Part shown: piece by piece, positions 591-35,414 of the stretch | How positions within the stretch are numbered: position 1 is the stretch's first letter | How the letters are laid out: each line of letters starts with the position of its first letter | Origin: Candidatus Parcubacteria bacterium | GTDB taxonomy: Bacteria; Patescibacteriota; Patescibacteriia; UBA1558; GWA2-36-10 | NCBI GenBank assembly: GCA_018669975.1 | Contig: JABHSK010000009.1 | Coordinates: forward strand, 1-49,126 | Length of the DNA stretch: 49,126 bases | Direction: 5' to 3' | Position numbers and translations under genes: made by a program | The notes under the pieces: generated by a model | Database searches by the model: none | Seen by the model: the letters and a program-made list of their open reading frames with translations, nothing else | What the model was told of the DNA's origin: nothing

Positions 591-697
591 TAAGTTTTTA
601 GAGGATTTCTTCAAAAAATCCTCTACTTTTTCCAGCTCATCACATTCAGTGGTGGTATGGAATAGAGTAAAAAAGTTCTTTAATAAAGGAGAGTATA

Positions 698-1354
698 ATG
701 CAATTCGAAGAATTAAGAAAAAAAATCGGTTTTGGATTAGCCGCGATTGTTCATTGGTCCGAGTTGAGCCAAAATCAAGAATTTATTTCTGGCTTAAACT
801 TAACGGAATGGCAAGCAATCTGGAACCAAATTTGCGCTAACCCTGAAATCGACATTGATAAGCGGTCCTTTCTGCAAAAAATAGCCAGCGTGGCTAATAC
901 TTTAGACCTGTGGCTATTTCTATGCGTCAAAACCCCTCCTGATTGTATTGAAATCGAAAGGCAAGCCTGCCAGGAAATGTCCAAATTTTCCGCAACTTTT
1001 GAAGTATGGTCTGGAATATACGAAAAGTATAAAAATAGCCATAAACTTCGTAGTATATCTCCAATAGCTATTCAAAAAATGTCTGAATTAGCTAAGACTT
1101 TTGACCAAGGATTAAAGATCTATCAAGTAGCTGGAGCTCTGGCTGTTATGCCAGCGATGGGAGGTTATCTGACATTCACTGGAGTTGTAGCTGAAAACAC
1201 CGTCAGGATACAAAAACTAGGTACCACAATAATGGCTGAACAAGCCAAGACTGCTAGCCAATGGGACAAACTCTTCCGTTGTACTCTCTGTGATGAGGAG
1301 CTGAGAAATTTGGCCAAAAAAAATAGAGACCAACTTCGCTATCTTGGATCCTAA
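698..1354 (+). CDS. Hypothetical alpha-helical protein (218 aa)
   Basis: ORF with strong SD (AAGGAG, 686-691) and a downstream terminator; weak W-spaced helical repeats; no family recognised. Confidence 0.7.
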   Translation: MQFEELRKKIGFGLAAIVHWSELSQNQEFISGLNLTEWQAIWNQICANPEIDIDKRSFLQKIASVANTLDLWLFLCVKTPPDCIEIERQACQEMSKFSATFEVWSGIYEKYKNSHKLRSISPIAIQKMSELAKTFDQGLKIYQVAGALAVMPAMGGYLTFTGVVAENTVRIQKLGTTIMAEQAKTASQWDKLFRCTLCDEELRNLAKKNRDQLRYLGS

Positions 1355-1358
1355 ATAC

Positions 1359-1395
1359 AAAAGCGGGCTGACTTCAGTCACCCGCTTCTTTTTTT
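1359..1395. terminator. Intrinsic terminator between convergent genes, probably bidirectional
   Basis: AAGCGGGCTGAC-TTCA-GTCACCCGCTT hairpin flanked by A and T runs. Confidence 0.8.
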
Positions 1396-1406
1396 ATTAT
1401 AAAAAT

Positions 1407-2204
1407 TTATAATAATGTATTTTGCCAAGAATCCATCTTACCAGAGGTCTTGGCCTTTTTTATTCTATCAACATCAAACATCCTTAAAGCTTGCCTGAGA
1501 TGACAATAAGCCTTAACTTTATTTCCATTAATTCTTTGCACATCAATCTTGCGGCTGGTAGTGTCACCCTTTTCATCTATATATTCAACCTCCAGTTGCT
1601 CGCCATTAGTTAGGGCATCGTGAACTCTTTGTTCAATGGTACGGTTATTACTATTACCCCAACGAACTATAATTTTTTCTTTACGTCCAGCATTTTGATA
1701 CCAAATATGCCCGTGCTCTTTACCATATTCATAAACTTCTTTGGTAACCTTAACATCATCTAGACAATATCTAGTTAAATTCTCCCAATCATTATTTCTA
1801 TGATAGACAATAGCGTCTAAACCAGAACCAGATTTTCCATAACCTAAAGTGCTCTGGGCTACGCTTTCTAACTTGAGCCTATGACCTAGAGCATGTACAA
1901 TCTCTTCTAAAATATCTAAGTGACCTACGGTAGATAAATCAAATTCATCATAATATGGTTGCAAAACTGGAAAATCAAAGCTCTTGCTATTAAAACCAAT
2001 CACTTCTTCAGCATTTTTTAAAATATCTAAAAGCCCAGCAAACTCTTCTTCTCTAAAGGCCCTATATTGGTCACGATTATAAGAATAAATTCCAACCAAA
2101 GAAACACCTAATAGGTGCTTATTGTGATGACCACCTACTTCATCAAAAGTTTTTAGTGTCTCCAAGTCTAATACAATTTTATCTTTTTTTTCTTCTTTGT
2201 CCAT
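1407..2204 (-). CDS. RNase H-like (DEDD / YprB-type) exonuclease fused to a C-terminal WYL-like domain
   Basis: ExoI VLDLET, ExoII GFNSKSFD and ExoIII YCLDDV motifs. The C-terminal 80 aa match the WYL pattern (LEVEYID..TTSRKID..VKAYCHLRQALRMFDVDRI). Confidence 0.8.
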   Translation of the reverse strand: MDKEEKKDKIVLDLETLKTFDEVGGHHNKHLLGVSLVGIYSYNRDQYRAFREEEFAGLLDILKNAEEVIGFNSKSFDFPVLQPYYDEFDLSTVGHLDILEEIVHALGHRLKLESVAQSTLGYGKSGSGLDAIVYHRNNDWENLTRYCLDDVKVTKEVYEYGKEHGHIWYQNAGRKEKIIVRWGNSNNRTIEQRVHDALTNGEQLEVEYIDEKGDTTSRKIDVQRINGNKVKAYCHLRQALRMFDVDRIKKAKTSGKMDSWQNTLL

Positions 2205-2233
2205 GGATAGTATTATAACAAATTTATAAAAAA

Positions 2234-4249
2234 TTACCAGTTATCTACACTGGGCAAAAAGCCATCACCATCATCATTGTCTTGACAGTCAAGATCACTG
2301 ACATATGACACACCATCACTAGAGGCATAGCTAGTTGTTTTAGATAATTGATTATGATTAAGCAAATTACCATCTACTTCTCCAATAAATGGTGATGGAC
2401 TCATACTTTTGTAACCATCGAAACGATAAACTGCCAAAGGATAAGTTAAATATAAATAACGACAGGCCCTGGTAATGGCTACATAAAACAAACGACGCTC
2501 CTCCTCTATCTCTTCGGCAAAAGGATGTGGAAATGCACTATCTGTCATATTAATAACAAAAACAGCTGCCCACTCTAAACCTTTGGCTTGATGGACTGTA
2601 CTGAGAATCACAGATTCTCTATTTTCTTTCTTAGCCTGACTAGCACTATAACCTTCTTGTAAACTTATTTCACTTAGGAAATCTTCTAATATATCATAAT
2701 CAATCGCAAAGATAGCTAGCTGATCTAAGTCATCCTGACGTTGATGATAATCAGGAAATTTTTCCATTAGATAGCTACTGTATTGTTCAATTACTAAATG
2801 TATCAACTGACTAACATCCTTATCTCTCTGTTTAACCAATTTATCAATCAAAGAGCTAATACGGCTCCAGCTCTGTCCAGCTTTTGCAGCTAAATTTAAT
2901 TTTAATTCCATTAATTCCGAAATGTCATCAAGGCTAGCCAGCTGTTGATATATCAACTTGGCTGTGACTGGACCAACACCTTCATAGAGTTGTAAAATTC
3001 TCATCCAAGACACCTCATCACGATGATTACCCAATACTTTGAGCCATGACAAAACATCTTTAACATGAGCTCTTTCGAAAAATCTCAAGCCGCCCCTCAT
3101 TTCATAATCAATACCACGTCTATTGAGTTCCATTTCTAAAGTCTGCGCATAATGAGACGCTCTAAATAACACAGCTATACTACTTGGTCTAACCTCTCTA
3201 CCCAATAACTGTTGTATCTTGTCGGCTATAAACCATGCTTCTTCCTTATTGCTGCGTAAAGCAACCAATTCTGGGCGCACATGACTGTCATTGATAGCTG
3301 ATAATTCTTTAGAAAATTGATTTTGATTAACAGCAATAACCTGGTTGGCTAAATCTAAAATTTCTGGAGTAGAGCGATAGTTGGTTTCCAGTTTATGAGT
3401 TTTACAATTTTTAAAATTTTTAGGAAAATCTAAAATGTTTTTAATATTTGCTGCCCGAAAAGAATAAATACTCTGCGCATCATCACCAACCACCAAAATA
3501 TTCTGGTGCAGTTTGGCTAAATTAAAAATAATCTCTGCCTGAATAATATTAGTATCCTGATATTCATCTACTAAAATATAGTCCCATTTTTTAGCTAGGG
3601 TTTCTCCAGCCCTAGCATCTTGAGTTAGCTTTTTCCAATACAAAAGTAAATCATCAAAGTCCAGAAGTTTAGCCACTTGTTTGCGACGTTGGTATTCCTT
3701 GGTTATTTTTTCAAAAATATCTAAAAACGGAACCCATTCCGGAAACTTGGTTTCTAAACTAGCCTCAATGCTAATTTTAGAATTATTAGCAAAACTAATT
3801 GTTTCTCTAAAAATAGCCGGTGATGGTTTACGTTTTTCAGATAACCCCTTTAGAAACTCCTTGCTAATCAATTTAAGTAAGGTATCCGTATCAGCAGTGT
3901 CCATAATAGTGAAATCTGACTCTAGACCAATATGTTTTCCATATATTCTCAACAGTCTATTGGCCACTGAATGGAAAGTACCACCCCATAGAGAAAACTT
4001 CTCCTTGGGCGCAACTCCTAAAATAGCTTTAGCCCTGACCATCATTTCGTTGGCCGCTTTATTAGTAAAAGTCAACAATAATATTTTCTCCGGTTTAACA
4101 CCTTGCGATATCAACCAAGCTACCCGATAAACCAGGGTTCTGGTTTTACCTGAGCCAGCACCAGCCAAAACTAAATGAGGCCCGTCACCGGCAGTGACGA
4201 CCTCGTATTGCTGTTGATTAAGTTCATTTTTGAAATTGGGTTGAATCAT
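2234..4249 (-). CDS. pcrA: ATP-dependent DNA helicase, UvrD/PcrA family (SF1)
   Basis: AGAGSGKT, DEYQD, VGDDAQSIYSFR, NYRS, TVHQAKGLEW and EERRLFYVAITRA motifs. Start moved to ATG 4249 (MIQPNF) because the longer start lies in the upstream terminator. Confidence 0.9.
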   Translation of the reverse strand: MIQPNFKNELNQQQYEVVTAGDGPHLVLAGAGSGKTRTLVYRVAWLISQGVKPEKILLLTFTNKAANEMMVRAKAILGVAPKEKFSLWGGTFHSVANRLLRIYGKHIGLESDFTIMDTADTDTLLKLISKEFLKGLSEKRKPSPAIFRETISFANNSKISIEASLETKFPEWVPFLDIFEKITKEYQRRKQVAKLLDFDDLLLYWKKLTQDARAGETLAKKWDYILVDEYQDTNIIQAEIIFNLAKLHQNILVVGDDAQSIYSFRAANIKNILDFPKNFKNCKTHKLETNYRSTPEILDLANQVIAVNQNQFSKELSAINDSHVRPELVALRSNKEEAWFIADKIQQLLGREVRPSSIAVLFRASHYAQTLEMELNRRGIDYEMRGGLRFFERAHVKDVLSWLKVLGNHRDEVSWMRILQLYEGVGPVTAKLIYQQLASLDDISELMELKLNLAAKAGQSWSRISSLIDKLVKQRDKDVSQLIHLVIEQYSSYLMEKFPDYHQRQDDLDQLAIFAIDYDILEDFLSEISLQEGYSASQAKKENRESVILSTVHQAKGLEWAAVFVINMTDSAFPHPFAEEIEEERRLFYVAITRACRYLYLTYPLAVYRFDGYKSMSPSPFIGEVDGNLLNHNQLSKTTSYASSDGVSYVSDLDCQDNDDGDGFLPSVDNW

Positions 4250-4290
4250 AGGTAGACATATTATAATACAAACTTGGAAATAGGTAAAAT

Positions 4291-4318
4291 AAAAATCCCG
4301 CATCCTAAGATACGGGAT
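4291..4318 (-). terminator. Intrinsic terminator of the 4331-5287 gene
   Basis: Minus strand ATCCCGTATC-TTAG-GATGCGGGAT-TTTT. Confidence 0.8.
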
Positions 4319-4330
4319 CAATGTCTAGCT

Positions 4331-5287
4331 CTAAGCCAGCACATCATTGATGATAACGTCGCGGATTTCCTCCCAAGTCAGAATACTGCCCGATGCTCGA
4401 GCTGAGCCTCCGATTAGGTCAGAACCTCCCCAACGATCTGTTTCGGGCATTTCCTCGCCACGCTTAGCTTCCTCGGCCTTGTTGAGAGCCGCCAAAATAT
4501 CGGTAACCGGGAAGGGAATATACTGCGAGCGGCGTCCAACCACATAAACAATCCGACCGTCATCACGACGAGCCACAATACTAACAAAGGCATTCATGCC
4601 CTTGCTATAAAGATGGTAGCGAGCATCGTTGCCGCCAATCTCATCGACGATCTTGAAGATCGAATGATCGAATAAAGTCTCATGACGAGTATCCAAGTCG
4701 ACCTCGCCAGCCTCACCCATCATGGCCTTGGTTAGGCGAACCATGACCGCATCCAAATTATCAAGCATTACCTGCTCGTCAGCATTGGCCAACTGGCCAG
4801 ACTTACGCAGATTGGTGTAGGGCTCGAAAATCCAACAATACTGACGGACGTACTCTTCCTTGAGGTTAATCGGGAAAGCACCACCGGTGATGTCCCACTT
4901 GTCCGATAAATCTAAAACACGACTGATAGCCGGTACACTCTGTGTACCCTCGAAAAGCTTATAGTTCATGAGTAGCCAAACGGCCAAGACAGTATCCTGA
5001 TCGGTATCGTTAATATAGATGTGAGCATGAGCCCTACCATCTTCTCGGAACGATTCCATCAGACCACCCTTGATGGCCATAAAGACCTGCTTAGCAGTAC
5101 TCATAGTGGCTTCTCGAACCACATTACCATGATGATCAAAATTGATGTGCAGACTATGCTCATCAAAACAAGGACCACCGTTAACCACACCATCCAGAGC
5201 AATGGAATTATTCGGCGTATTTGCCAAAAATTCCTCCCAGGTCATGGTTTGACGGGGTAATACGTGAATCTCAAATGTAGGCTTCAT
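4331..5287 (-). CDS. DHH-like phosphoesterase-fold protein (318 aa)
   Basis: IALDG, NFDHH and INDTDQD motifs plus C-terminal WGG..IGGS; strong SD (AAAGGAG); visibly GC-richer than the flanks. Confidence 0.65.
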   Translation of the reverse strand: MKPTFEIHVLPRQTMTWEEFLANTPNNSIALDGVVNGGPCFDEHSLHINFDHHGNVVREATMSTAKQVFMAIKGGLMESFREDGRAHAHIYINDTDQDTVLAVWLLMNYKLFEGTQSVPAISRVLDLSDKWDITGGAFPINLKEEYVRQYCWIFEPYTNLRKSGQLANADEQVMLDNLDAVMVRLTKAMMGEAGEVDLDTRHETLFDHSIFKIVDEIGGNDARYHLYSKGMNAFVSIVARRDDGRIVYVVGRRSQYIPFPVTDILAALNKAEEAKRGEEMPETDRWGGSDLIGGSARASGSILTWEEIRDVIINDVLA

Positions 5288-5341
5288 AGCACTTTTCTCC
5301 TTTGTTGATTGAGGTGCCGAAACTACTGATTTAAAAAATAT

Positions 5342-5386
5342 AATGTACTCAATGTGCCATTATAGTCCTAAATGATTTTTTGTCAA
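5342..5386 (-). promoter_or_regulatory. Sigma70-type promoter plus boxA-like motif
   Basis: TTGACA (5386-5381), 16 nt, TATAAT (5364-5359), then AGTACATT (5349-5342). Confidence 0.7.
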
Positions 5387-5421
5387 TATACTACTTGCAA
5401 GCCTGTTTTTCTTGCTCAAAT

Positions 5422-5453
5422 AAAAAACCAGACTCTCTCGATAAAGAGTCTGG
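5422..5453 (-). terminator. Intrinsic terminator of the orphan pilin gene
   Basis: CCAGACTCT/AGAGTCTGG stem followed by a T6 run on the minus strand. Confidence 0.8.
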
Positions 5454-5460
5454 CTAAAGC

Positions 5461-5892
5461 CTAAGAAGAACGTTTCGGTATTTTATTCAAAGTGATAGTT
5501 TTAACAGCGTCAACACCACGAGCAGTAATGACATAGTCAACGGCCACGCCATTTCGGCAGATCACTTCGATTCCCACTTGCCCCTCTACAGCGGCTGTAG
5601 CACCAAATAATGGCTCAGTGCGCTCTCCGGTAAACGGATTTTTCAGAAGCTCTTTTCCAGGCAAGAAAGGAAGGAGGTCCTCCTTCTTATCTGAATAAAC
5701 ACCATCATTTTTATCCGCATAAGCTTCGGCTGCCTGCTGCACTGTGCGTGCAACACCCTTAGTCTTGGCTTCCTTGGCTCGATCTTGCATACTAATAAAA
5801 TTTGGAATTGCAATCGCTGCTAGCATCCCGATAATCACAACTACAATCATTAATTCTATTAATGTGAATCCGCCTCTTGGCTTACCTGACAT
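5461..5892 (-). CDS. Type IV pilin / pseudopilin (143 aa)
   Basis: Class III signal G|FTLIELMIVVVIIGMLAAIAIPNF. The likely start is ATG 5892 with SD GGAGG at 5904-5900. Confidence 0.9.
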   Translation of the reverse strand: MSGKPRGGFTLIELMIVVVIIGMLAAIAIPNFISMQDRAKEAKTKGVARTVQQAAEAYADKNDGVYSDKKEDLLPFLPGKELLKNPFTGERTEPLFGATAAVEGQVGIEVICRNGVAVDYVITARGVDAVKTITLNKIPKRSS

Positions 5893-5971
5893 GCGCTTTC
5901 CTCCAAAGAATGTTATAAGGGGTGTATCCCCTTGTGACAGATTACTTAATAACCTCTCTTTCAGGCTTGAG

Positions 5972-6026
5972 TTTATAAGAACAGAAACTGAAAAAATACT
6001 ATATAATATCCAATGCACCCTGTCAA
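5972..6026 (-). promoter_or_regulatory. Sigma70-type promoter plus boxA-like motif
   Basis: TTGACA (6026-6021), 17 nt, TATAGT (6003-5998), then TGTTCTTATAAA (5983-5972). Confidence 0.7.
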
Positions 6027-6111
6027 TATAATACACTATCAAGTGTTGCAATTTTATTAGCTTTGTGTTTTAATTTGTCTTGTTATCATTAATTTAAACC
6101 CTGAAGAACAT

Positions 6112-7173
6112 ATGTCATTTTCTCTAGGTATAGTTGGCTTACCAAATGTCGGCAAATCAACACTATTTCAAGCATTGACCAAAAACAAGGTAGAAGCATC
6201 CAACTACCCGTTTTGTACTATTGATCCAAATGTTGGTGTAGTAGCTGTACCGGATGACCGTTTGGATAAACTAACTAAAATGTCCCAATCTGCTAAGACT
6301 ATCCCCACCACGATAGAGTTTGTTGATATTGCTGGATTAGTTAAGGGTGCCTCTGAAGGAGAAGGTTTAGGAAATAAGTTTTTATCACATATCCGAGAAG
6401 TTGACGCTATCGTTCAAGTAATACGATATTTTAATAACGGAGACGTCACCCATGTCCATGGTAAGGTAGATCCTGAATATGATAAACAAATTATCAATTT
6501 AGAATTAATCATGGCCGACCTAGACACTGTCAGCAAACATCTAGATAAAGTAGTCAGTAAAATGAAAGGGCCCTATGATAAAATACTAGATAAGGAAAAG
6601 GTGATTTTAGATAAAGTACGTACCACCTTGGAAGATAATAAAATGGTAAACCAGCTAGAGTTTGATGAAGAAGAGAAGAAAATACTTAAACAGCTCAACC
6701 TACTAACCATTAAACCAATTATTTACCTTTACAACATTGACGAATCTGATGTTAACGAGGATCTTGATCTACCAGAAAATACCATTGCTATCTGTGCCCA
6801 AGTGGAGGCTGAATTAGCCGAATTAGAAGAAACAGAGGTTAAAGAATTTTTGAAAGAGCTGGGCATAGAAAAAGGTGGCTTGGACAGTCTAATTAAAACT
6901 AGCTACAAACTATTAAATCTAATCACCTTTATAACTACTGGTCCAGAAGAAACCAAGGCTTGGACAGTCACTCGTGGCGCTAAGGCCCCACAAGCAGCAG
7001 GTGTTATTCACACTGATTTTGAAAAGGGCTTTATACGAGCCGAGGCAATCAATTGGCAGGAGCTCCTAGATTCTGAATCTTGGAATAATGCTAAAGATAA
7101 AGGATTGATGCGCATGGAAGGAAAAGAGTATATCGTCCAAGACGGAGACACTGTCCATTTTCACTTTAATTAA
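6112..7173 (+). CDS. ychF: Redox-regulated ATPase YchF (Obg family)
   Basis: [42 protein letters not shown] and TGS-domain [13 protein letters not shown]. Confidence 0.97.
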
Positions 7174-7205
7174 AATAACGCCTAAATCGGCGTTGTTTTG
7201 TTTTT
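7172..7205 (+). terminator. ychF terminator
   Basis: AAAATAACGCC-TAAATC-GGCGTTGTTTT hairpin followed by T-rich sequence. Confidence 0.7.
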
Positions 7206-7255
7206 ATAATGAAAAAATGATAGAATTATAACATTGTTTTTGACTTAAAATTATT

Positions 7256-8017
7256 ATGAATTCTAAAAAAGTTATTGCTGTTTTGCCCGCCTACAATGCT
7301 GCCAAAACACTCAAGCTAACACTAGACGATATACCTGCGGGTAGCGTAGATGAAATCATTCTAGTAGACGACGCTAGTAGTGACAATACTGTAGAATTAG
7401 CTAAACAATATGGCTTACATGTTTTTGTTCATGAAAAAAATAAGGGCTATGGTGGTAATCAAAAAACCTGCTATAAAAAAGCTTTAGAAATGGGTGCTGA
7501 TATAGCCATTATGATTCACCCAGATCATCAATATAATCCAAAATTAGTACCACAAATGCTAGCACCACTACTAAATGAAGAATGTGACGCTGTTTTTGGC
7601 TCTCGCATGATACACAAACGAGACGCTTTAGAAGGTGGTATGCCAAAATATAAATTTGTAGCTAACATAATACTAACCAAAATAGAAAATTTTATCTTGG
7701 GACTAACACTAGCTGAATACCATTCTGGCTTTAGAGCATACTCTAAAAAAGCATTGTCAATGCTACCACTACAAGAAAACTCGGATGATTTCGTTTTTGA
7801 CACAGAAATCATTGCTCAACTAGCAATCAATAAATTTAAAATCAAAGAAATACCCATTAATACAAAATATTTCAAAGATGCTTCAAATATAAGCCTAAAA
7901 CGTAGTACGGAATATGGTCTGGGAATTTTAAAAACAATGGTTAAATATAAACTCCACCAATGGGGCATAAAAAAGATAAAGCAATTATCTTCGGTAAATA
8001 ACCCTGCTAATGAGTAA
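7256..8017 (+). CDS. GT2 glycosyltransferase, polyprenol-phosphate sugar synthase (DPM1-like)
   Basis: VLPAYNAA, VDDASSD, NKGYGGNQK, HPDHQY, GSR and SGFRAY motifs. Confidence 0.9.
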   Translation: MNSKKVIAVLPAYNAAKTLKLTLDDIPAGSVDEIILVDDASSDNTVELAKQYGLHVFVHEKNKGYGGNQKTCYKKALEMGADIAIMIHPDHQYNPKLVPQMLAPLLNEECDAVFGSRMIHKRDALEGGMPKYKFVANIILTKIENFILGLTLAEYHSGFRAYSKKALSMLPLQENSDDFVFDTEIIAQLAINKFKIKEIPINTKYFKDASNISLKRSTEYGLGILKTMVKYKLHQWGIKKIKQLSSVNNPANE

Positions 8018-11034: not shown

Positions 11035-11045
11035 AACTTACACTT

Positions 11046-11077
11046 AAAAAAACCACCCCTGAGTAGGGATGGTTTTT
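11046..11077. terminator. Bidirectional terminator
   Basis: AAAAAACCACCCCT-GAGT-AGGGATGGTTTTT between convergent genes. Confidence 0.7.
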
Positions 11078-11088
11078 AAAAATACTCG

Positions 11089-13488: not shown

Positions 13489-13546
13489 TTGACATAAATC
13501 AACAAAAATAGTATGGTTGTATGTAAATTACTTTGTACCCTCAAAA
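13489..13546 (+). promoter_or_regulatory. Sigma70-type promoter of the NYN gene with a degenerate boxA-like motif
   Basis: TTGACA (13489-13494), 17 nt, TATGGT (13512-13517); TGTACCCTCAAAA at 13534-13546. Confidence 0.6.
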
Positions 13547-13661
13547 CACACTAGAAAGGAAGGTGTAACTATAATATTGTGCGCAAGTAACCAGCGTACC
13601 TGGATCCTCCCCTGTAAATACTACAGAGCCCTAAAAACCGCAACCTTAGGGGGTTTATATC

Positions 13662-14396
13662 ATGTTAGGGCAAAAGAAAAAAGGCAAAGATACATATGTG
13701 CTAGTAGATGGTGAAAATATTATTTTCTCTATTCAAAACAAATACGGCCTCAGGCTAAATTTCCATAGAGTGGTCCAGATGCTCACAGAGCTTTACGGAG
13801 ATGTCAAAGTCTTCGTATTCGGCCACTTCAGTGATGACGGCAATGGGCTTTTCCTAGCCGTCAAACAACACATACAATCCTGTCCTCATACACACGTCGT
13901 TGACACCAGAGTCAGTAATAAACCACACCGAGAACAATCGGATCTAGCCATGCTAGAGGAACTGACTATGGGCATTAATGGCCTTTTCCAAAATCTTGAT
14001 GCATACGAGAGAGCTGTTTTCATGACTGGTGATGGCTCGATGCTACGGGCCGCACTTCATTGTCGGGATGTATTTGATCTGGACACTATTGTCATGGCTG
14101 AAGAAGGCACCATCAACGCCTCATTCATGGACGCAGGAATCAATGTGGTCCATGTCGATCCCATCGTCAACAACCTATTGGTTGTTAACAAACTAGACGA
14201 TGACATTTTTGCTGCTGCTGGTGCAGGCTCAGTCGATGACATGCTAGAAGCCGTCCAGGTTAATCACCTCATGCATACCCCGGCACAAGCCAACGAAAGA
14301 GAGCGTGATCGTATCAGAAGCATCAATCAAGTTCGACGAGAACTTATCCGACACCGAATCAATCTTATGCTCCAAGCTAAGGGGCAAAAAGAATAG
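13662..14396 (+). CDS. NYN domain (LabA/DUF88, PIN-fold) protein
   Basis: VLVDGENI, QSDLAML and FMTGDGS motifs; SD-like AGGGGGT at 13648-13654. Confidence 0.75.
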   Translation: MLGQKKKGKDTYVLVDGENIIFSIQNKYGLRLNFHRVVQMLTELYGDVKVFVFGHFSDDGNGLFLAVKQHIQSCPHTHVVDTRVSNKPHREQSDLAMLEELTMGINGLFQNLDAYERAVFMTGDGSMLRAALHCRDVFDLDTIVMAEEGTINASFMDAGINVVHVDPIVNNLLVVNKLDDDIFAAAGAGSVDDMLEAVQVNHLMHTPAQANERERDRIRSINQVRRELIRHRINLMLQAKGQKE

Positions 14397-17617: not shown

Positions 17618-18169
17618 CTATCCTTCCTGCGGTGCAGGCGGTTGTGACACATCCGTGTCAACGCTCCGCATACCAGCAGTAGTGGCATCCTTGATGCCAG
17701 TAGCAGCGTCCTTCATATCGGACAAGCTTACACGAGCCTCTTCGTCAATATCATCTCCCAAGGCTACTGCCTCATCCAATACCTTAAGGAGCGCGCCAAG
17801 ATTGTCCAATAAATCCATCTGCAGAGCCCTCATCATTTCATCGGGAACACGCTGATAGCGATCAGTAACATACTCTTCCCAATTTTCCAAGGTAGGCTGC
17901 TCGAGCATATTAGGACGACTGTCCTTTACTTCTTGCATCAGTCCGATGTCAAAAGCCAGGTCACGGGCATCATAGAAATCCAGGGGTATCCTCTGGCCAT
18001 CTTCGGTAAACATTACCAAAAAGTTGGTGGTTTCCAACATCTGCCAGCTGGTACCTTGATCTAGAATGTCCATGATTGTTGCCCAAAACTGCTTGAAAGC
18101 TGCCGGAAAATTACTGTGAGCTCCTTTTTCCTCGAGTCCAACTGTGACTGAAAAAACTGTCTTCGGCAT
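17618..18169 (-). CDS. Hypothetical acidic protein (183 aa)
   Basis: ORF with SD AAGGAG, its own promoter and terminator; GC-richer than the flanks; no family recognised. Confidence 0.75.
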   Translation of the reverse strand: MPKTVFSVTVGLEEKGAHSNFPAAFKQFWATIMDILDQGTSWQMLETTNFLVMFTEDGQRIPLDFYDARDLAFDIGLMQEVKDSRPNMLEQPTLENWEEYVTDRYQRVPDEMMRALQMDLLDNLGALLKVLDEAVALGDDIDEEARVSLSDMKDAATGIKDATTAGMRSVDTDVSQPPAPQEG

Positions 18170-18226
18170 TAGAATTACTCCTTGCTTGGGTTTTGTAATG
18201 ATGAACTAATATACTACGAATCATAT

Positions 18227-18278
18227 AAAATGTACTTAGACTTCCAGTGAAGTTAACAAAAAAAAATAATAGTGTCAA
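18227..18278 (-). promoter_or_regulatory. Sigma70-type promoter plus boxA-like motif
   Basis: TTGACA (18278-18273), 17 nt, TAACTT (18255-18250), then AGTACATTTT (18236-18227). Confidence 0.65.
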
Positions 18279-18321: not shown

Positions 18322-19338
18322 TTAAAACAATTTACTATCTTTTGGCTTTTCAACCTCTAAATAGTCATAAGTCTTCTCAGTAGCCACCCTACCCTTAGAG
18401 GTTCTAGACAAAAACCCTAACTGCATCAAGTATGGTTCGAATATCTCTTCAATGGTGCCGGCCTCTTCCTGGACCGCTGCTGCTAAAGTGCCTAAACCAA
18501 CTGGCCCACCAGAAAAATTATCTACTATAGCCTTGAGTAACCTTCTATCTAAATCATCTAAACCGTGTTTATCAATGGCCATCAATTCTAAAGCCTGATT
18601 AGTTAGGTCTAATGACACATCTCCGTTACTCTTAACTTGAGCATAATCTCTAACCCTCTTAAGAATACGATTAGCTATCCTTGGGGTAGCTCTACTACGA
18701 CTAGCTATCTCATCACTGGATTGTTGATCCATGCTAATACTTAAAATATCCGCTGAACGTCTTACTATACTAGACAATTCTTGATCATTATAAAAATTCA
18801 GTCTAAAGGTAACGCCAAATCTATCCCTAAGTGGTGAAGAAATTAAATTATATCTAGTGGTAGCACCGATGATAGTAAACTTTGGTAAATCCAAACGCAA
18901 GATCTGAGCTGAAGGACCTTTGCCTAAAATAATGTCTAAAGCAAAATCTTCCATGGCCGGATAAAGAACCTCTTCAATAGTTTTATTCAATCTGTGTATC
19001 TCATCAATAAATAGAATGTCACCATCTTGTAGATTAGTGATGATGGCTGCTAGATCTCCTGCCTTAGAAATAGCTGGCCCAGATGTAACCTTTATACCCA
19101 CACCCATTTCTTTAGCTATAATATGAGCTAAAGTAGTTTTACCTAAACCCGGGGGTCCAAAAAGCAACACATGATCCAGCGCTTCCTTCCTTTCCTGGGC
19201 AGCCCTAAGAACAATATCTAAATTAGCCTTGACCTGTTCTTGTCCAACATAGTCCCCTAATTTTTGTGGACGTAAAGTCAAATCCCAAGTTTTGTCAGTA
19301 TTTTGCTCTTGAGCTGATGTTATTCTCTCTTCTTCCAT
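18322..19338 (-). CDS. ruvB: Holliday junction branch migration helicase RuvB
   Basis: [43 protein letters not shown] and EPYLMQLG. Confidence 0.97.
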
Positions 19339-24606: not shown

Positions 24607-26415
24607 ATGAAAGAAATCATCAAAAAATTTGCTATATTCTTTTTATTTCTTGCTATTATCGCATTCATTTTTAGCTTCTTCGGAACCGACTCAGAAGAAA
24701 GCAATGAAATAAGTATAGCCACTCTAATACAAGAGATTAATAGTGATGAAGTTGCTAAAATTGAAGTACAAGGCAATGTATTAGATATAACCCTGAAAAA
24801 CGAAGAACACCAGACTAGTAAAAAAGAAACTGGTGAACCTCTTAGTGATCTATTAAAAAACTATGATGTGTCAGCTGAAAAAATTGCAGCTATGGACATA
24901 AATGTTGGTGAGGAAGCAAATTCTGGCATGCTATGGACTACCATACTGCCTTTTCTGATACCTGGGTTATTTATCATAGCCTTAATCTGGTTTATGATGC
25001 GCCAAGTACAAGGTGTAAACAATAGGGCTATGACTTTTGGACAATCTGGAGCTAAGGTAGCTGATAGACAAAAACAGAAGTTTACATTTAACGATGTAGC
25101 TGGTGCTAAAGAAGCCAAAGAAGATTTATTTGAGATAGTAGAATTTTTAAAACATCCACAAAAATTTATTGCTATTGGTGCTAAAATACCAAAGGGCGTC
25201 TTATTATTAGGTGCGCCAGGTACTGGTAAAACTTTATTGGCTCGTGCTGTCTCCGGCGAAGCTAAGGGGCCTTTCTTCCATATTTCAGGTTCTGAATTTG
25301 TGGAAATGTTTGTAGGTGTGGGTGCTTCACGTGTTAGAGACTTATTTAAGAAAGCAAAGAAGTCTGCACCCTGCATTATCTTTATCGATGAAATAGACGC
25401 TGTCGGTAGACAACGTGGTGCCGGACTAGGCGGGTCTCATGATGAAAGGGAACAAACACTCAATCAAATTCTAGTTGAGATGGATGGCTTTGACAATCAA
25501 ACCAATATCATCGTTTTAGCAGCCACTAATCGTCCTGATGTACTAGATCCTGCACTACTTAGACCTGGTCGTTTTGATAGACAGGTAGTAATCGACTTGC
25601 CAGATATGAAAGATAGAGCAGCTATCTTGGGTATTCACGCCAAAGACAAGCCATTGGCCAAAAATGTTGACTTAAAGGTGGTAGCTCAGAGAACACCAGG
25701 ATTTTCTGGAGCTGATCTAGCCAACCTACTTAATGAGGCTGCTATTATGACTGCTAGAGATAACAAAAAAATAATTGAAGAAGAGACTGTTTTAAATGCT
25801 ATCGAAAGAGTATTATTGGGTCGTGAAAGAAAAAGTCATATCCTATCAGAAAAAGAAAAGAAAATTACTGCCTATCATGAAGCCGGACACGCTTTAGTTG
25901 CTCATATGTTACCTAACGCTGATCCAGTACACAAAGTTTCTATCATAGCTCGTGGTCGAGCAGCTGGTTACACTATTAGCCTTCCCAGGGAAGATAAAAA
26001 GATGCAAAGTTATTCTGACTTTATAGATAGCATGGCTGTATTACTAGGCGGCTATGCAGCTGAAAAAATATTTTTTGGTGAAGTAACAACAGGTGCCAGT
26101 AATGACTTGAAAAAAATAACCAACCTAGCTCGTCAAATAGTGACTCAATTTGGTATGGACGAGAAACTAGGTCCAAGAACTTTTGGACAAAAAGAAGAGA
26201 TGGTGTTCCTGGGTAAAGAAATACACGAGCGTCGTGATTATAGTGAAAAAACAGCCGAGGCTATTGACCAAGAAATATCTAATTACGTTGGACAAGCTTT
26301 AAAGACTGCCACCAAAACTATCTCTGAAGAAAAAGACAAAATGGAAAAAATTGTACAGATGCTAATAGATAAAGAAACTATAGAAAAAGAGGCTTTTGAA
26401 AAATTAATGTCTTAA
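24607..26415 (+). CDS. ftsH: ATP-dependent zinc metalloprotease FtsH
   Basis: Two TM helices, [28 protein letters not shown] and the HEAGH zinc motif. Confidence 0.97.
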
Positions 26416-26454: not shown

Positions 26455-26464
26455 ATCAAAAAAT

Positions 26465-26493: not shown

Positions 26494-26500
26494 TTTAATA

Positions 26501-26824
26501 TTATTCTGCATCATGCCAAATAATGTCATCTTCACTGTCTACCCAGTAGGTCTTCTTGCTGACGGAGACCTTGGGACTGTGATTGTCATTTTCCAGTCGA
26601 GGCTGCTCGACCTTGTCATCAGCAATCAGCTGACGCAAGACTTCTTCGGCCTTGTCAGGAAACTCAATCCAGCTCTCAGTCCTATAATCAGTAATAACCT
26701 TTGTCCAGTCTGCTTCGTCAGCACAACGAGTGCCAGCAATAATCTTTTTCACATCTCCGATGAGCACGTCACCCCTGGCAATGTCAGCGACACAGAGACT
26801 AACGCTGAGTCCGATCTTAGGCAT
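26501..26824 (-). CDS. Hypothetical protein (107 aa)
   Basis: SD AAGGAGAGG, own promoter and terminator; KIGLSVSLCVADI...KVEQPR pattern. Confidence 0.75.
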   Translation of the reverse strand: MPKIGLSVSLCVADIARGDVLIGDVKKIIAGTRCADEADWTKVITDYRTESWIEFPDKAEEVLRQLIADDKVEQPRLENDNHSPKVSVSKKTYWVDSEDDIIWHDAE

Positions 26825-26930
26825 TACTTACCTCTCCTTCTGTTTTGGGATGGTAACATCCCTTGGTGAAATTAATAAACGGTTAACGATCATTAAAACT
26901 ATGAATATTAAACAGATTTTTACAAATTTA

Positions 26931-26981
26931 TATAGTGAACACAGAATAAAAGAGATTAACATGCAGGTTATATTTTGTCAA
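26931..26981 (-). promoter_or_regulatory. Sigma70-type promoter plus boxA-like motif
   Basis: TTGACA (26981-26976), 17 nt, TAATCT (26958-26953), then TGTTCACTATA (26941-26931). Confidence 0.65.
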
Positions 26982-28041: not shown

Positions 28042-28160
28042 TTCTTTATAACACAGACCTAACCCTGGACCGTTTGCCTTTGGCTTTGGATCAGGGTTTT
28101 AAATTGACTTTAAATTTTATCAAAAGTATAATATTGATAGGCTTTTAAAAAGGATAAAAT

Positions 28161-29891: not shown

Positions 29892-29923
29892 AAAAATTCC
29901 CCGATAATCGGGGAATTTTTTTT
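29890..29923. terminator. Bidirectional terminator
   Basis: AAAAAAATTCCCCGAT-A-ATCGGGGAATTTTTTT inverted repeat between convergent genes. Confidence 0.85.
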
Positions 29924-32900: not shown

Positions 32901-32960
32901 ATAAATATCCTTTTCATGCTGCTTCGGCTCGTAGGCCTTGGCCATTTCTGTTATTGTCAT
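29922..32960 (-). CDS. valS: Valine--tRNA ligase with an inserted histidine-phosphatase domain
   Basis: PPPNATGILHLGH, DHAAIATQ, TTRPET, DWCISRQIWWGHRIP, DTWFSS and KMSKS; start moved to ATG 32960 downstream of the T-box. Confidence 0.95.
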   Translation of the reverse strand: MTITEMAKAYEPKQHEKDIYRLWEESGLFNPDNLKGKGKPFTISMPPPNATGILHLGHAAALSYEDLMIRYKRLQGYKTLWLPGTDHAAIATQTKVEKILAEEGTDRETLGREKFLQRVREYVTQSQGNIKNQTRRMGSSCDWSRERYTFDEGLSQAVNEAFVRMYEDELVYRGHRIVNWCTRCASTLADDEVEYQEQDAKLYYIKYGPFIVATTRPETKLADTGVAVHPEDERYQKYVGQELDIDLAGHKIKVKVFADKEVDKDFGSGVVGVTPAHSAADYNFAQRHNLQTIKLIDEQGQVMESGGKYKGIAVLDARKAFVKDLEQAGQIDKIEEIKNNLSICYRCETAIEPLTSEQWFVAVDKEIPGRGKTLKQLASETVKNKEIEIVPERFVKTYHNWMDNLHDWCISRQIWWGHRIPVWYKKNKTGIKITFFRHTQSEANALKIGAGHKDYKLTAKGVVQAQEIAKEINPDDFDVIFSSDLSRAKDTASILFPGKKVIEDNRLREVDFGDLTDKSGSLIDKHRVKGFPNGETYQQVRDRVQLFFDEVANKYKNKRIAIVAHSGTWKTFEIILNGGDFSEDSLNVHAPLGAHQYNLDQKQNEIHVGLEKPTGSGWVQDPDTLDTWFSSSLWTFSTLGWPEKTKDFKKFHPTTVMETGYDIIFFWVARMILMTEYLLEDKPFETVYLHGMIRDKDGRKMSKSLGNGIDPIDMIDKFGTDALRLSLIIGSALGADLRVYEEKIAGYRNFVNKLWNISRFILTSVSEVKTIKKQPKVKTLADKWILSEFNEMIDEVSKDLDNFKFSSAGEKLYHFTWDDLADWYLEIAKIEKDKDEILLYILERLLIICHPFTPFVTENIWKYFDKENLLMVADWPKVGKVDKDTIINFAELKELVVNLRNLKAANKIPPTDFPDCNLVSAILSDDYLQLAAKMARVNLIDEAVDVEPIYVNSSKVLIDLSREMSDKEKNDIEKYIKSLEIKLANEKFTSSAPPEVVAETKRRLEQARNKLK

Positions 32961-32971
32961 AAACTTTATAT

Positions 32972-33175
32972 AAAAAATAAAAACGCAAGTACTTGCGTTT
33001 AAGGGTCCCATAAACATGAGACGGTACCACCTTAATTCCTGCGAAACACCCCGAGCAATCGAAGGGTCCTACAGACACTTAATTCCTGCACAATAACGGG
33101 CGCACCCCGGTAGGTTCTAGTCTCTTAAAATAAGATTTCTTCCTACAACTACCCAGGCGACATTAATCCTGGATT
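32972..33175 (-). promoter_or_regulatory. T-box riboswitch leader of valS (Val GUC specifier)
   Basis: Antiterminator AAGG-UGGUACC-GUCUCAU/AUGGGAC-CCUU; F-box CCGUUA; Stem II GUAGG/CCUAC with AGAA/GAA internal loop; short Stem I AUCCAGG-AUUAAUGUCG-CCUGGGU; downstream hairpin AAACGCAAG/CUUGCGUUU plus U-rich tail. Confidence 0.88.
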
Positions 33176-33204
33176 AAAACGTTTTTTATTCAATTGATAA
33201 TATT

Positions 33205-33233
33205 ACAATAATATAAATTACTATTTTAGTCAA
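33205..33233 (-). promoter_or_regulatory. Probable valS promoter
   Basis: TTGACT (33233-33228), 17 nt, TATTGT (33210-33205). Confidence 0.6.
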
Positions 33234-33648
33234 TGATAATTTTCCTTTTATCACCTTCTAAATTTTCTATTTTTATTTTAATAGTACTATCAGGTAAATT
33301 AATAATTTTATCAGCCCATTCAATTACTACCACGGAATTATCAAAAGCCAAATAATCACTTAGACCAATATCAGCTAAATCCTCCTGCCCTTCCAATCGA
33401 TAGCAGTCAACATGAACTATCCTTCTTATCTTACCAACTTCTACGTCATAAACTTTCATTAAAACAAAAGTCGGACTAGTAATATTTTCTTCTACCCCCA
33501 TAGCTTTAGCCAGCGCCTTAACAAACACTGTCTTGCCAGCGCCCAAATTACCAGATAGAGCCAAGACTTCGCCCCCCTGTAAACTTTTGGCTACCTCCTG
33601 GGCTATGCGACCTGTTTCTTCTACATTGTTACTTATATATTCTTTCAT
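33226..33648 (-). CDS. tsaE: tRNA threonylcarbamoyladenosine biosynthesis ATPase TsaE
   Basis: LSGNLGAGKT, ITSPTF, HVDCYRL and IEWA motifs. Confidence 0.95.
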   Translation of the reverse strand: MKEYISNNVEETGRIAQEVAKSLQGGEVLALSGNLGAGKTVFVKALAKAMGVEENITSPTFVLMKVYDVEVGKIRRIVHVDCYRLEGQEDLADIGLSDYLAFDNSVVVIEWADKIINLPDSTIKIKIENLEGDKRKIIID

Positions 33649-33656
33649 ATCTTATA

Positions 33657-34709
33657 TTATATTTTATTTTTGGTTAATTGCCAATTAGACTTTGGTTGTA
33701 GCTCGAAAATATCCCTACCCTTTAATAACCCTTTAGTGGATTTTGATAATCTATAATAAGCTGCAGCAGCTACCATAGCAGCATTATCACCACTGTGCTT
33801 TATGTCTGGTGAAAAAAATGGTAGTTGCATACTCTTAGCCGTAGCTGTTAAAGCTTGACGTAGAGCAGTGTTGGCGGCTACGCCACCTGCCACCATAATT
33901 GAACTTACCTTATATTCTTGAGCAGCTTTGGTAGTTTTAGAAATCAAAATATCTACTACTGCCTGCTGAAATGAAGCGCACATATCCGCTACGTCCTGTT
34001 TATTTATATCTTTTTTCTTCTCCAGGGTATATAACACCGCTGTCTTGAGTCCGGATAAACTAAAATTATAATTTGGTTTATCCAACATCGGTCGTGGTAA
34101 CTTATAAGCCTGATTATTTCCTTGCTCAGCTAATTTACCAACTATTGGTCCACCTGGATAACCAAGTGATAACAACTTGGCTACTTTATCAAATGCTTCT
34201 CCTACTGCATCATCGATGGTTTGACCAATTAATTGATACTCTCCATGATCTTTCATTAAAACTAATTCTGTATGACCACCAGATACAATTAATACTAGAG
34301 CTGGAAAATACTGCTGACTATTTTTTACCAACTCTGAATTACTTAGCCAATTGGAGTACACATGTCCTTCCATATGATTAACTGGTAATAGTGGTAAGTC
34401 ACTAGCATAAGCTAGAGCTTTAGCAGTCGCTATACCCAAAAGAAGCGCAGACACTAAACCTGGCCCAGAAGTGACCGTTATATAATCAATGCCCTTTAAT
34501 TTATTTTTACCTAAGGTATTGTCAATTAGAGGAATAATTGTTTCTAGATGTTTACGGGCAGCTACCTCAGGTACTACTCCACCATATTTTTTATGAATAT
34601 CAATTTGAGAATAAATCTGATTTTTTTCCAACTGCAAAGAACCCTTATCGCCCTTTAGTAAGGCGATAGCTGTTTCGTCACAAGATGATTCTATGGCTAA
34701 TACTTTCAT
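33657..34709 (-). CDS. tsaD: tRNA N6-adenosine threonylcarbamoyltransferase TsaD
   Basis: IESSCDET, GGVVPEVAARKH, NHMEGH, VSGGHT, DDAVGEAFDK, GGVAAN and DNAAM motifs. Confidence 0.96.
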   Translation of the reverse strand: MKVLAIESSCDETAIALLKGDKGSLQLEKNQIYSQIDIHKKYGGVVPEVAARKHLETIIPLIDNTLGKNKLKGIDYITVTSGPGLVSALLLGIATAKALAYASDLPLLPVNHMEGHVYSNWLSNSELVKNSQQYFPALVLIVSGGHTELVLMKDHGEYQLIGQTIDDAVGEAFDKVAKLLSLGYPGGPIVGKLAEQGNNQAYKLPRPMLDKPNYNFSLSGLKTAVLYTLEKKKDINKQDVADMCASFQQAVVDILISKTTKAAQEYKVSSIMVAGGVAANTALRQALTATAKSMQLPFFSPDIKHSGDNAAMVAAAAYYRLSKSTKGLLKGRDIFELQPKSNWQLTKNKI

Positions 34710-34785
34710 ATGTATAATTATAACAGATTTGCTAATTTAAATTAAAAAGAAGCTTTTGTCAATTCCCTAAGAACACCCTTAAACC

Positions 34786-34832
34786 TTGACAAATAAGCGT
34801 TTTTATGTAAAAATAGTCAGTTCGTACTTTAA
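34786..34832 (+). promoter_or_regulatory. Promoter plus boxA-like motif of the cupin gene
   Basis: TTGACA (34786-34791), weak -10 TAAAAAT (34808-34814), GTACTTTAA (34824-34832). Confidence 0.55.
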
Positions 34833-34878
34833 GTTTACCTAATATTAAGCTATACACACTCAAACTTGGAGGTAAGTC

Positions 34879-35379
34879 ATGCTTATACTGCCCGATGCTC
34901 AAAAGGTAGCTATTATCGATCCCAGAAAAAAAATGGGAGAAGAAGGTCAATATACCACTCACACTGGTAGCCAAGAAGCTCTCGAAACCGTCATCGGAGA
35001 TGCTCGCGAAGCAGGAATGGAACTTCGCTACTATTACACCGATATGTCCGATGGTAACGGAGAAAATGTGCCAATCAAGGTGATTGTCACCGAAATCCCC
35101 CCTTATCACGTACAGCCATTCCACACCCACTCCAATGTCCATGAAGTTTCCACAGTCCTATTTGGTGAAGTGGTCGCTGTCGACAGCGATACTTTAGTGG
35201 AAGCAAATCACCAGGAAATTGAAGAAGTGGGTACTGTAGTCAAACGAGGTGGCTCGATAATCGCCGATCGTGGTGTGCGACACACTGTCGCTAACTTCTC
35301 TGACAGTGTAGCTGTCTTTATCACCCAAAACGTTCTACCTCTGCCTAAGGGCGAGGATTTCGAACCTGATTGGAAATAG
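34879..35379 (+). CDS. Cupin-domain protein
   Basis: PFHTHSNVHEVSTVLFGEV and GVRHTVAN cupin metal motifs; SD GGAGGT. Confidence 0.8.
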   Translation: MLILPDAQKVAIIDPRKKMGEEGQYTTHTGSQEALETVIGDAREAGMELRYYYTDMSDGNGENVPIKVIVTEIPPYHVQPFHTHSNVHEVSTVLFGEVVAVDSDTLVEANHQEIEEVGTVVKRGGSIIADRGVRHTVANFSDSVAVFITQNVLPLPKGEDFEPDWK

Positions 35380-35389
35380 CTAAATATCC

Positions 35390-35414
35390 ACGGGTCCCAA
35401 GGGGCCCGTTTTTT
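35390..35414 (+). terminator. Cupin gene terminator
   Basis: ACGGGTCCC-AA-GGGGCCCGT-TTTTT. Confidence 0.8.

Follow-up and report, generated by a model that had tools for sequence, protein, structure and literature searches.

Two co-varying sets of expression signals in a Candidatus Parcubacteria genome: core genes and G+C-richer accessory cassettes with a boxA-like leader word

The genome of an uncultured Candidatus Parcubacteria bacterium (GenBank assembly GCA_018669975.1) runs two sets of expression signals, which co-vary genome-wide and set a minority of G+C-richer genes, here called cassettes, apart from the core genes among which they lie. The stretch from which the analysis starts, referred to as the window, is the 49,126 nucleotides of contig C4 (JABHSK010000009.1) from C4:1 to C4:49126, and it holds seven stand-alone genes of the cassette type, each with a strong Shine-Dalgarno (SD) sequence and a short word in its leader that resembles boxA, the RNA signal of the Nus factors. 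A first-pass annotation of the window had proposed, from these seven genes, that the genome has two expression grammars, and the present work carries that proposal to the whole genome (G000) and to 30 order-level relatives (which carry other G-numbers), 31 genomes in all. The full explanation, that G+C-richer accessory cassettes with a grammar of their own are set among core genes, is given a probability of about 0.75.

Core and cassette grammars across the genome

The assembly comprises 1,067,342 bp in 10 contigs, with ~36.5 % G+C and 96 % completeness; the standard genetic code suits it, and the GyrA encoded in the window is 65–67 % identical to proteins of metagenome-assembled genomes (MAGs) labelled Buchananbacteria, Magasanikbacteria and Falkowbacteria, i.e. 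of Parcubacteria type. A periodic Markov caller of our own yielded 1,026 genes, and for the SD tests start codons were picked blind to the SD. An SD was scored where at least 5 nt complementary to the 16S 3′ tail lay within −3 to −12 of the start, with −30 to −39 as the control window, a reversed SD being unsuitable as a control because GGAGG is identical backwards. The cassettes, or class A, number 137 genes, of which the 111 with an upstream gap of at least 60 nt entered the motif search; the core comparison consists of 755 genes, with 319 upstream regions in that search. Terminators were detected as a hairpin plus a T-run.

SD sequences, −35 use, leader length, leader motif, terminators and G+C content at third codon positions (GC3) vary together across the genome, which upholds the two grammars first proposed from the window. 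The cassette class amounts to about 13 % of genes and 9 % of the DNA, mostly as single-gene units. An SD precedes 74 of 110 genes with GC3 of at least 0.40 and 30 of 640 with GC3 below 0.30 (p = 7e-50), the latter figure being the background rate. Binned by GC3, SD frequency is 4.3–4.9 % in the two lowest bins (below 0.30), 27 % at 0.35–0.40 and 63–73 % at 0.40 or more, against 2–9 % SD-like matches in the control window in all bins, and the SD-to-start spacing peaks at 5–8 nt. Upstream of GC-rich genes TTGACA occurs 2.5 times per kb on the sense strand versus 0.94 on the antisense strand, the values for core genes being 0.94 and 0.88, and a perfect TTGACA is found for 44 of 88 GC-rich genes. 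A terminator stands behind 84/137 class-A genes (61 %) compared with 203/755 core genes (27 %) and 10/276 intragenic controls, and the combination of an upstream gap of at least 60 nt with a terminator is found in 66/137 cassettes versus 100/755 core genes. The GTWC core of the leader word lies at offsets 6–18 after the −10 in 23 of 65 TTGACA promoters of the class versus 2 of 32 other TTGACA promoters (Fisher p = 0.0025). Promoter, core word, SD and terminator occur all together in 37 of the 111 class-A genes with an upstream gap of at least 60 nt. In addition to single units, class-A genes form runs of 5–10 neighbours (C8:171288-181013, C8:91553-98032, C7:142396-158801 and C4:131571-143214), unlike the singletons of the window.

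The predicted cassette promoter is of sigma-70 type and −35-dependent (tATTGACAaaa, a 16–18 nt spacer and TAnnnT), and the predicted leaders, of some 45–150 nt in the general scheme, were measured at 29–271 nt, mostly 45–80 nt, with an A/C-rich stretch between the word and the SD. The core grammar is built differently: expectation-maximization (EM) on the 319 core upstream regions returned two signals, namely the T-run that belongs to the preceding terminator and, with its end ~26 nt before the ATG, an extended −10, TTTnTGnTATAAT. A −10-like hexamer ending 5–9 nt before the ATG was seen for 81/319 core genes (32 at the control position) versus 0/111 cassettes, and those core promoters that do have TTGACA give leaders of 6–7 nt in five cases and mostly of <50 nt. 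As read from these signals, core genes are leaderless or short-leadered and SD-free. Averaged over 1,022 starts, the upstream sequence is rich in A/T and shows no peak of G, T occupies −1 in 58 % of starts and the frequency of A is 0.52–0.59 from −6 to −3; the core start context is Kozak-like, without an SD.

On cassette mRNAs, translation would initiate by pairing of the SD with a retained anti-SD tail of the 16S rRNA, and core mRNAs would be initiated without an SD or as leaderless mRNAs. A check of the 16S 3′ end had been suggested from the start, and it was made in relatives since the 16S gene of this genome is cut at a contig end: all eight family relatives with a full-length 16S, which end in GGATCACCTCCTTTCT, carry the anti-SD tail CACCTCCTTTCT. 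According to the portion of the source available, part of the Parcubacteria has no anti-SD motif (PMC9297842). Because 8/8 relatives retain the tail, the anti-SD appears to persist in a lineage in which core genes make no use of it, and for the same reason the more speculative idea that the cassettes are tuned to the SD-reading machinery of a host becomes unnecessary. To our knowledge, SD-poor Bacteroidota are similar in that A-rich core starts lack an SD, the anti-SD is kept and a minority of genes is SD-led; however, the SD-led minority here is large (about 13 %), accessory, GC-richer and tied to another promoter architecture and to a leader word, and many core genes here look leaderless.

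A boxA-like word in cassette leaders

Seeded only with frequent 6-mers, EM on the 111 class-A upstream regions returned tATTGACAAAA, the T-runs of terminators and the word TtnG-W-W-C-n-T-T-n-A-A/C-A-a, the last with a log-likelihood of 125 versus 38 ± 7 (maximum 53.5) in 20 shuffles. The strict form G[ACT][AT]C.TT.A[AC]A occurs 31 times on the sense strand and twice on the antisense strand in 15.8 kb of class-A upstream sequence, and three times in 41.7 kb of core upstream sequence, against a genome background of 0.071 per kb-strand; in five-fold held-out scoring, at least 10 bits were reached by 31/111 class-A sense sequences, three antisense sequences and 2/319 core sequences. The GTWC motif of the first-pass annotation is thus real and cassette-specific, as the de novo search found it, and has been refined by that search to the 11-nt G-W-W-C-N-T-T-N-A-M-A; the motif discovery and the comparison with shuffled and housekeeping sequence that had been proposed alongside it place the word far above shuffles and absent from core leaders. 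Chance, base composition or a chimeric metagenome bin might be invoked in its stead, as GTWC is short and was picked after looking, and GC-richer DNA has more words containing G. This explanation is rejected: chance is contradicted by the shuffles, the antisense strands, the controls on position and the held-out tests, and the cassettes share their contigs with the core genes on either side of them and recur in the same slots of relatives.

For 20 of 28 measured copies, the G of the word follows the −10 at a distance of 9–21 nt, and the distance to the ATG is more variable; because the distance to the −10 is the steadier of the two, the word is tied to the 5′ end of the transcript. Words of the GAAC, GTTC and GTAC types were considered as separate elements and, since all stand at similar distances from the −10, were treated as one motif. 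A conserved leader hairpin was likewise considered and dropped: the 23 leaders folded have a mean z of −0.23 and are not unusually structured, and the word is no more unpaired than its surroundings (unpaired probability 0.60 versus 0.59 in the rest of the leader). The word is linear, and may be bound by a protein on the nascent RNA.

At the sequence level the comparison with boxA made in the first-pass annotation stands. The word matrix is strongest at G1 (0.88), C4 (0.77), T6 (0.96), T7 (0.93), A9 (0.66) and A11 (0.85), all of which match the boxA consensus GYTCTTTAANA, whose C at position 4 is described as critical in the part of the study available (10.1101/091223). Positions 2, 3, 5 and 8 are looser than in the consensus, and the variable position 10 coincides with the consensus N. 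The boxA variants of Bacillus and cyanobacteria, which we take to be GTTCTTTGAAAA and GAACCTTGAAAA, respectively, also fit the word. The genome departs from the known boxA system in the element of the lineage's own rRNA leader, where position 4 is G, in Rho, for which no gene was found, and in the fusion of NusB to a NUDIX domain.

Among the closest known systems is boxA outside rRNA operons. As far as the available part of the same source goes, there are 0–7 perfect boxA copies per gamma-proteobacterial genome, few targets per species are expected, and the Nus complex acts as a translational repressor of suhB and of a gene for a ParE-like toxin, also when boxA and SD are moved 100 nt apart (10.1101/091223). 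As in E. coli suhB and the Citrobacter ParE-like gene, the word described here is an 11-nt linear sense-strand word in the 5′ leader with the same fixed positions, it stands upstream of the SD at a variable distance, and a search for the factors, proposed at the outset, found NusB, S10 (NusE) and NusG encoded. The differences are that suhB-type boxA has few targets per species, whereas dozens of copies mark a gene class here, and that the suhB mechanism includes Rho.

The main rival to an RNA signal is that the word is a DNA operator, bound just downstream of the transcription start by a global transcription factor such as a repressor of accessory genes. With a position of ~+3 to +25 from the predicted start, which is typical of repressor sites, a regulon-like restriction to one gene class and a sequence that differs from the lineage's rRNA-leader element, the word has some traits of an operator; however, it is neither palindromic nor a regular direct repeat, it is strand-specific (31 sense versus 2 antisense copies), the spacing between it and the −10 ranges over 12 nt and more, and its fixed positions match a known RNA signal one for one. 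An operator is therefore considered unlikely, and a signal in RNA is preferred.

Several observations weigh against the explanation favoured here or against parts of it. Even when self-trained, the matrix gives at least 10 bits for only 44/111 cassettes (the held-out 31/111 being lower still), and in its genome-wide 16-nt form only one of the seven window copies (13535-13545, 12.8 bits) reaches that score. Start codons are the predictions of a simple caller, and promoters and transcription starts are all predicted from sequence. The SD enters the definition of class A in the GC3 band 0.33–0.40, and only there, which introduces circularity that the test by GC3 only avoids. With respect to Nus factors, Rho_RNA_bind had no match and TIGR00767 scored 40 and 26 bits against a cut-off of 509 in this 96 %-complete genome; the rRNA-leader element scores 6.6–7.6 bits on the word matrix, with G or T at position 4; and every cassette ends in a terminator, which an antitermination complex would not obviously respect.

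Given the G at position 4 of the rRNA element and a Rho that was not found, a classical anti-Rho function of boxA is unlikely. The leading mechanism, held tentatively and at rather less than even odds, is that the word is a site for NusB-S10, with binding predicted from the match to boxA. Through NusB-S10 on the word, the leader would be held to the polymerase during transcription, and elongation or translation of these leadered mRNAs could be tuned. A bolder version, to which a much smaller chance is given, holds that Patescibacteria of this order reserve an expression channel of its own, and addressable as such, for those accessory genes that are exchanged; in it the boxA word would recruit NusB-NUDIX and S10 to the nascent transcript and gate translation or process the 5′ end, the anti-SD would be kept mainly for this channel, and GC-richness would be actively maintained as an element of that code. 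The NusB in question is encoded outside the window at C4:147762-148625 (+); it has 287 aa, with NusB at 7–133 and a C-terminal NUDIX domain at 176–277, whose REUXEE box reads RELSEE. Of the 30 relatives, 26 have the fusion at full length, and in family f7 NusB occurs on its own. A dependence of the word on the fusion is unsupported, as the f7 genomes still have four and two promoter-plus-word matches.

The rRNA-leader element, GCTGATTGAAAA or a close variant, is present in 8/9 loci (this genome and 7/8 relatives), ~55 nt after the first TTGACA promoter of the leader. The leader as a whole (C4:163560-163890 here, loci L159-L166 in relatives) is highly conserved and consists of two or three TTGACA promoters, GTAGCTGATTGAAAA and one half of a processing stem. 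In relatives, the 16S is then followed by the other half of the stem, a terminator and, in several loci, a tRNA-like sequence, not by 23S, and for this reason the rRNA genes look unlinked. Two GTTCTTTGAAA promoter matches in G028 were considered as further rRNA leaders and set aside, as Rfam gave no rRNA there and the one locus that was read precedes an SD-led protein gene. The assembly does not contain the full 23S; a stretch of 86 nt at C1:181304-181389 (+) that matches 23S positions 2128–2213 (54.9 bits) lies upstream of a small gene at C1:181547-181804, and could be the rRNA-mimic leader of a ribosomal-protein operon.

Distribution, accessory status and age of the cassettes

The pattern of promoter plus word extends beyond this genome: 14 matches here are joined by 105 in the 30 relatives, 25 of which have at least one, against none for the backwards control in the 31 genomes. 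The same-family relative G005 (844 kb) illustrates the association on a smaller scale. There, an SD precedes 1.7–3.3 % of genes with GC3 below 0.30, i.e. the level of the control window, only 20 of 775 genes reach a GC3 of 0.40, and the strict 11-mer lies upstream of 5/21 cassette-type genes (one copy overlapping TTGACA) and of 0/267 core genes. The suggestion that the cassettes form an accessory or orphan class is borne out by the same genome, in which homologues were found for 17 of 126 class-A genes (13 %) versus 535 of 728 core genes (73 %). The cargo is varied, with only 19 of 137 cassettes belonging to any paralogue family. Among 20 cassette proteins compared with Pfam, matches were to radical SAM, thymidine kinase, phosphoribosyltransferase, NAD kinase, NUDIX, Hsp70-like, GNAT, HD, isochorismatase, rhomboid, VIT1, HTH and AAA-kinase families, and six had no match.

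The window cassette 4331-5287 was followed through the relatives. Its homologue occurs in 2 of 30, that of the neighbouring core gene 2234-4303 in all 30. The protein family has 357 members at E ≤ 1e-5; among the 120 matches listed, identities are 55–100 % and the named members come mostly from Parcubacteria, Wolfebacteria and Moranbacteria MAGs. The comparison of synteny for empty sites, another check advocated in the first-pass annotation, showed the slot next to 4331-5287, between the genes for proteins of 689 and 353 aa, to be empty in G011, G012, G003 and G004. Conserved core genes border the cassettes, with synteny in nine relatives' loci. In G009 the slot holds a pilin gene, and at the G007 locus a pilin gene stands beside the 689-aa gene, both with the cassette grammar; G008 has a 227-aa gene with TTGACA, word and SD, and G006 and G016 have other DNA. 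The G011 homologue of 4331-5287 sits ~3 kb away, in the slot that holds cassette 698-1354 here, and has a homologous −35 region, word and SD; the homologues in G011 and G019 both carry TTGACA, word and SD.

The GC3 of this cassette is 0.51 in G000, 0.48 in G011 and 0.54 in G019. Identity at 4-fold sites between G000 and G011 is 0.43 for 4331-5287 and 0.39–0.46 for three core neighbours, which, for this one cassette, argues against simple acquisition. Since its 4-fold identity is like that of its neighbours and its GC3 is ~0.5 in three genomes, 4331-5287 is by this measure a long-term resident whose composition and signals have been preserved. Of the proposal that the cassettes are an acquired gene class, then, atypical composition, patchy distribution and variable slots have been retained, but acquisition was not recent for the one cassette dated, which is as diverged as its core neighbours. 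The class is accessory but not necessarily recent. Cassettes may be exchanged among Patescibacteria and may stay for long periods with composition and signals kept.

These data bear on the idea that the cassettes are fading relics of recent horizontal transfer from SD-using, GC-richer donors, with signals that the host does not maintain. Horizontal transfer has been reported to account for up to 13 % of Patescibacteria genome length, most of the exchange being within the Patescibacteria and not recent; in the portion of that survey available, the word 'promoter' occurs 0 times and no separate expression signals are given for transferred genes (PMC12455944). Compositional atypicality, patchiness and the variable slots are all expected of relics, as is the occurrence of the 4331-5287 family at 55–87 % identity in many Patescibacteria-labelled records yet in only 2/30 order-level relatives. 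However, the same grammar, with the word at the same distance from the −10, is found in 26/31 genomes of the order with no control matches, it recurs upstream of unrelated genes, perfect TTGACA in 44/88 GC-rich genes is more than a mixture of donors should leave, and the dated cassette, though as old as its neighbours, still has GC3 ~0.5 in three genomes. Fading relics are, on this evidence, improbable.

Phage provide another possible source. Phage morons are autonomous promoter-gene-terminator units, boxA is used in phage nut sites, and a strong early-type promoter, boxA and SD together could be viewed as a phage grammar carried by moron-like units. The cassettes resemble morons as single genes with their own promoter and terminator, a distinct composition, unrelated cargo and insertion between conserved genes, and the clusters of proteins that a language model finds similar to 4331-5287 include many members labelled Uroviricota, which is a lead only. 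They differ from morons in lying in a cellular chromosome among housekeeping genes, not in a prophage, and in sharing a leader word and a mode of translation that the host's own genes do not use. Furthermore, the neighbours of all seven window cassettes are core, not phage, genes, named homologues are from Patescibacteria MAGs, and the 4331-5287 protein had no relative among viral contigs in a scan that reaches close relatives only. Phage origin accordingly has little chance of being correct. Integrons offer a further likeness, in that single unrelated genes gather at preferred sites; integron cassettes as a rule lack a promoter and bear attC sites, whereas the units described here have their own promoter and terminator. 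The motif search upstream of cassettes returned only promoter, word and T-runs and no attC-like repeat, no integrase search having been made.

The seven window cassettes and the meaning of a second grammar

All seven genes are present at the starts originally given, all are flanked by core genes, and the genome-wide classification makes them exactly the class-A set of the window, with no other window gene qualifying. They are GC-richer, as had been noticed, with GC3 of 0.36–0.51 (n = 7) versus mostly 0.19–0.33 for other window genes, a few of which have 0.34–0.37. Six have the perfect TTGACA and 16–17 nt spacer attributed to them, each with a TAnnnT-like −10, and the GTWC core follows the −10 in all six, at 5–17 nt; for gene 698, whose promoter had been called weak, no TTGACA was found and the core abuts the SD. 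Strong SDs (AAGGAG, GGAGG, AGGGGG and AAGGAGAGG/GGAGGT) can be read directly, and both the GAGGTAAGTnATG common to 26824 and 34879 and the two GGG/CCC hairpins are real. A terminator had been assigned to all seven: the detector finds it for six, and behind 698-1354 the sole hairpin in the gap is scored for the convergent gene. Below 10 bits, two words score 8.7–8.9 and four have a GTWCNTT-type core with a weak 3′ half. By domain matches the proteins comprise one type IV pilin, two weak matches (NYN, cupin) and four without any.

On the forward strand, cassette 698-1354 encodes a 218-aa protein without a family match (GC3 0.36), and its word GTTCTTTAATA (675-685; 8.7 bits) runs directly into the SD AAGGAG (686-691), 6 nt before the ATG at 698. 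Cassette 4331-5287, on the reverse strand, encodes a 318-aa protein with a DHH-type motif, from the family that is widespread but patchy in Patescibacteria. Its promoter (5359-5386) consists of TTGACA (5381-5386), a 16-nt spacer and TATAAT (5359-5364), followed after 10 nt by the word GTACATTATAT (5338-5348), by the SD AAGGAG (5297-5302), 9 nt before the ATG at 5287, and, behind the gene, by an intrinsic terminator placed by the detector at approximately 4285-4320. The next core gene, 2234-4303, has a longest-ORF start that coincides in part with this terminator, and the corresponding proteins of relatives begin to align with its product only at about residue 4 to 19; its real start codon probably lies further downstream. 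The adjoining pilin cassette, also reverse, encodes a 143-aa type IV pilin-like protein with an N_methyl domain (5461-5892; GC3 0.38). It has TTGACA (6021-6026), a 17-nt spacer and TATAGT (5998-6003) as its promoter (5998-6026), the word GTTCTTATAAA (5972-5982; 8.9 bits) 15 nt after the −10, a GGGG/CCCC hairpin (about 5918-5932) preceding the SD GGAGG (5900-5904), and an intrinsic terminator at 5417-5456.

The best word of the window, GTACCCTCAAA (13535-13545), belongs to the forward cassette 13662-14396, which has a GC3 of 0.45, encodes a protein of 244 aa that matches the NYN domain weakly, and is followed by a terminator. The word stands 17 nt after the −10 of a promoter (13489-13517) made up of TTGACA (13489-13494), a 17-nt spacer and TATGGT (13512-13517), and the SD-like AGGGGG (13648-13653) lies 8 nt before the ATG. 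Reverse cassette 17618-18169 (183 aa, no family match, GC3 0.49, terminator behind) is transcribed from a promoter predicted at 18250-18278, with TTGACA (18273-18278), a 17-nt spacer and TGtTAACTT (−10 at 18250-18255), that abuts the terminator of gene 18322-19338; its word GTACATTTTAT (18225-18235) is 14 nt after the −10, and its SD AAGGAG (18178-18183) is 8 nt before the ATG. The 107-aa protein of the reverse cassette 26501-26824, likewise without a family match, has GC3 of 0.51. Upstream are TTGACA (26976-26981), a 17-nt spacer and TGtTAATCT (−10 at 26953-26958), together spanning 26953-26981, the word GTTCACTATAT (26930-26940) 12 nt after the −10, and the SD AAGGAGAGG inside GAGGTAAGTaATG (26831-26839); the terminator behind this gene and the hairpin that follows the convergent gene 24607-26415 overlap on opposite strands. 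Lastly, forward cassette 34879-35379 encodes a 166-aa protein with a weak cupin match (GC3 0.43), with a terminator to about 35414. It has a promoter at 34786-34814 (TTGACA at 34786-34791, a 16–17-nt spacer and TAAAAA/AAAAAT at 34808-34814), the words GTTC and GTACTTTAAG (34820-34833) 5–9 nt after the −10, and the SD GGAGGT (34868-34873) inside GAGGTAAGTcATG.

Elsewhere in the window, two convergent pairs, 9532-11034/11089-13407 and 28161-29891/29922-33017, each have a common hairpin (11035-11088 and 29892-29921, respectively) that reads as a terminator on both strands. Outside the window, ARAGORN reported a tRNA-like gene with an undetermined two-letter anticodon at C1:48696-48770, adjoining tRNA-Asn, and a tRNA-Ile with anticodon TAT lies at C7:40063-40139.

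No description of two grammars was found in the literature on SD or leaderless translation in Patescibacteria, or the candidate phyla radiation (CPR), or on a NusB-Nudix fusion. What is added here is the genome-wide quantification, the core grammar (an extended −10, a short or no leader and no SD) and the refinement of GTWC to an 11-nt boxA-like word at the 5′ end of the transcript that is conserved across the order. For annotation, gene callers trained with a single ribosome-binding model will misplace the starts of one or the other class, and promoter and SD models for CPR genomes should be class-specific. The combination of TTGACA, leader word, SD and higher GC3 amounts to a sequence tag for the flexible gene pool of ultra-small bacteria, and the finding that genes can stay compositionally 'foreign' for long challenges the assumption of amelioration in the dating of transfers. 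If the word is a Nus-factor site, the cassettes would be the largest set of boxA targets known, in an organism without a detected Rho and with a NusB-NUDIX fusion, and a non-ribosomal role of Nus factors would become directly testable. Finally, the two grammars suggest which signals would be needed for expressing genes in, or from, these uncultured bacteria.

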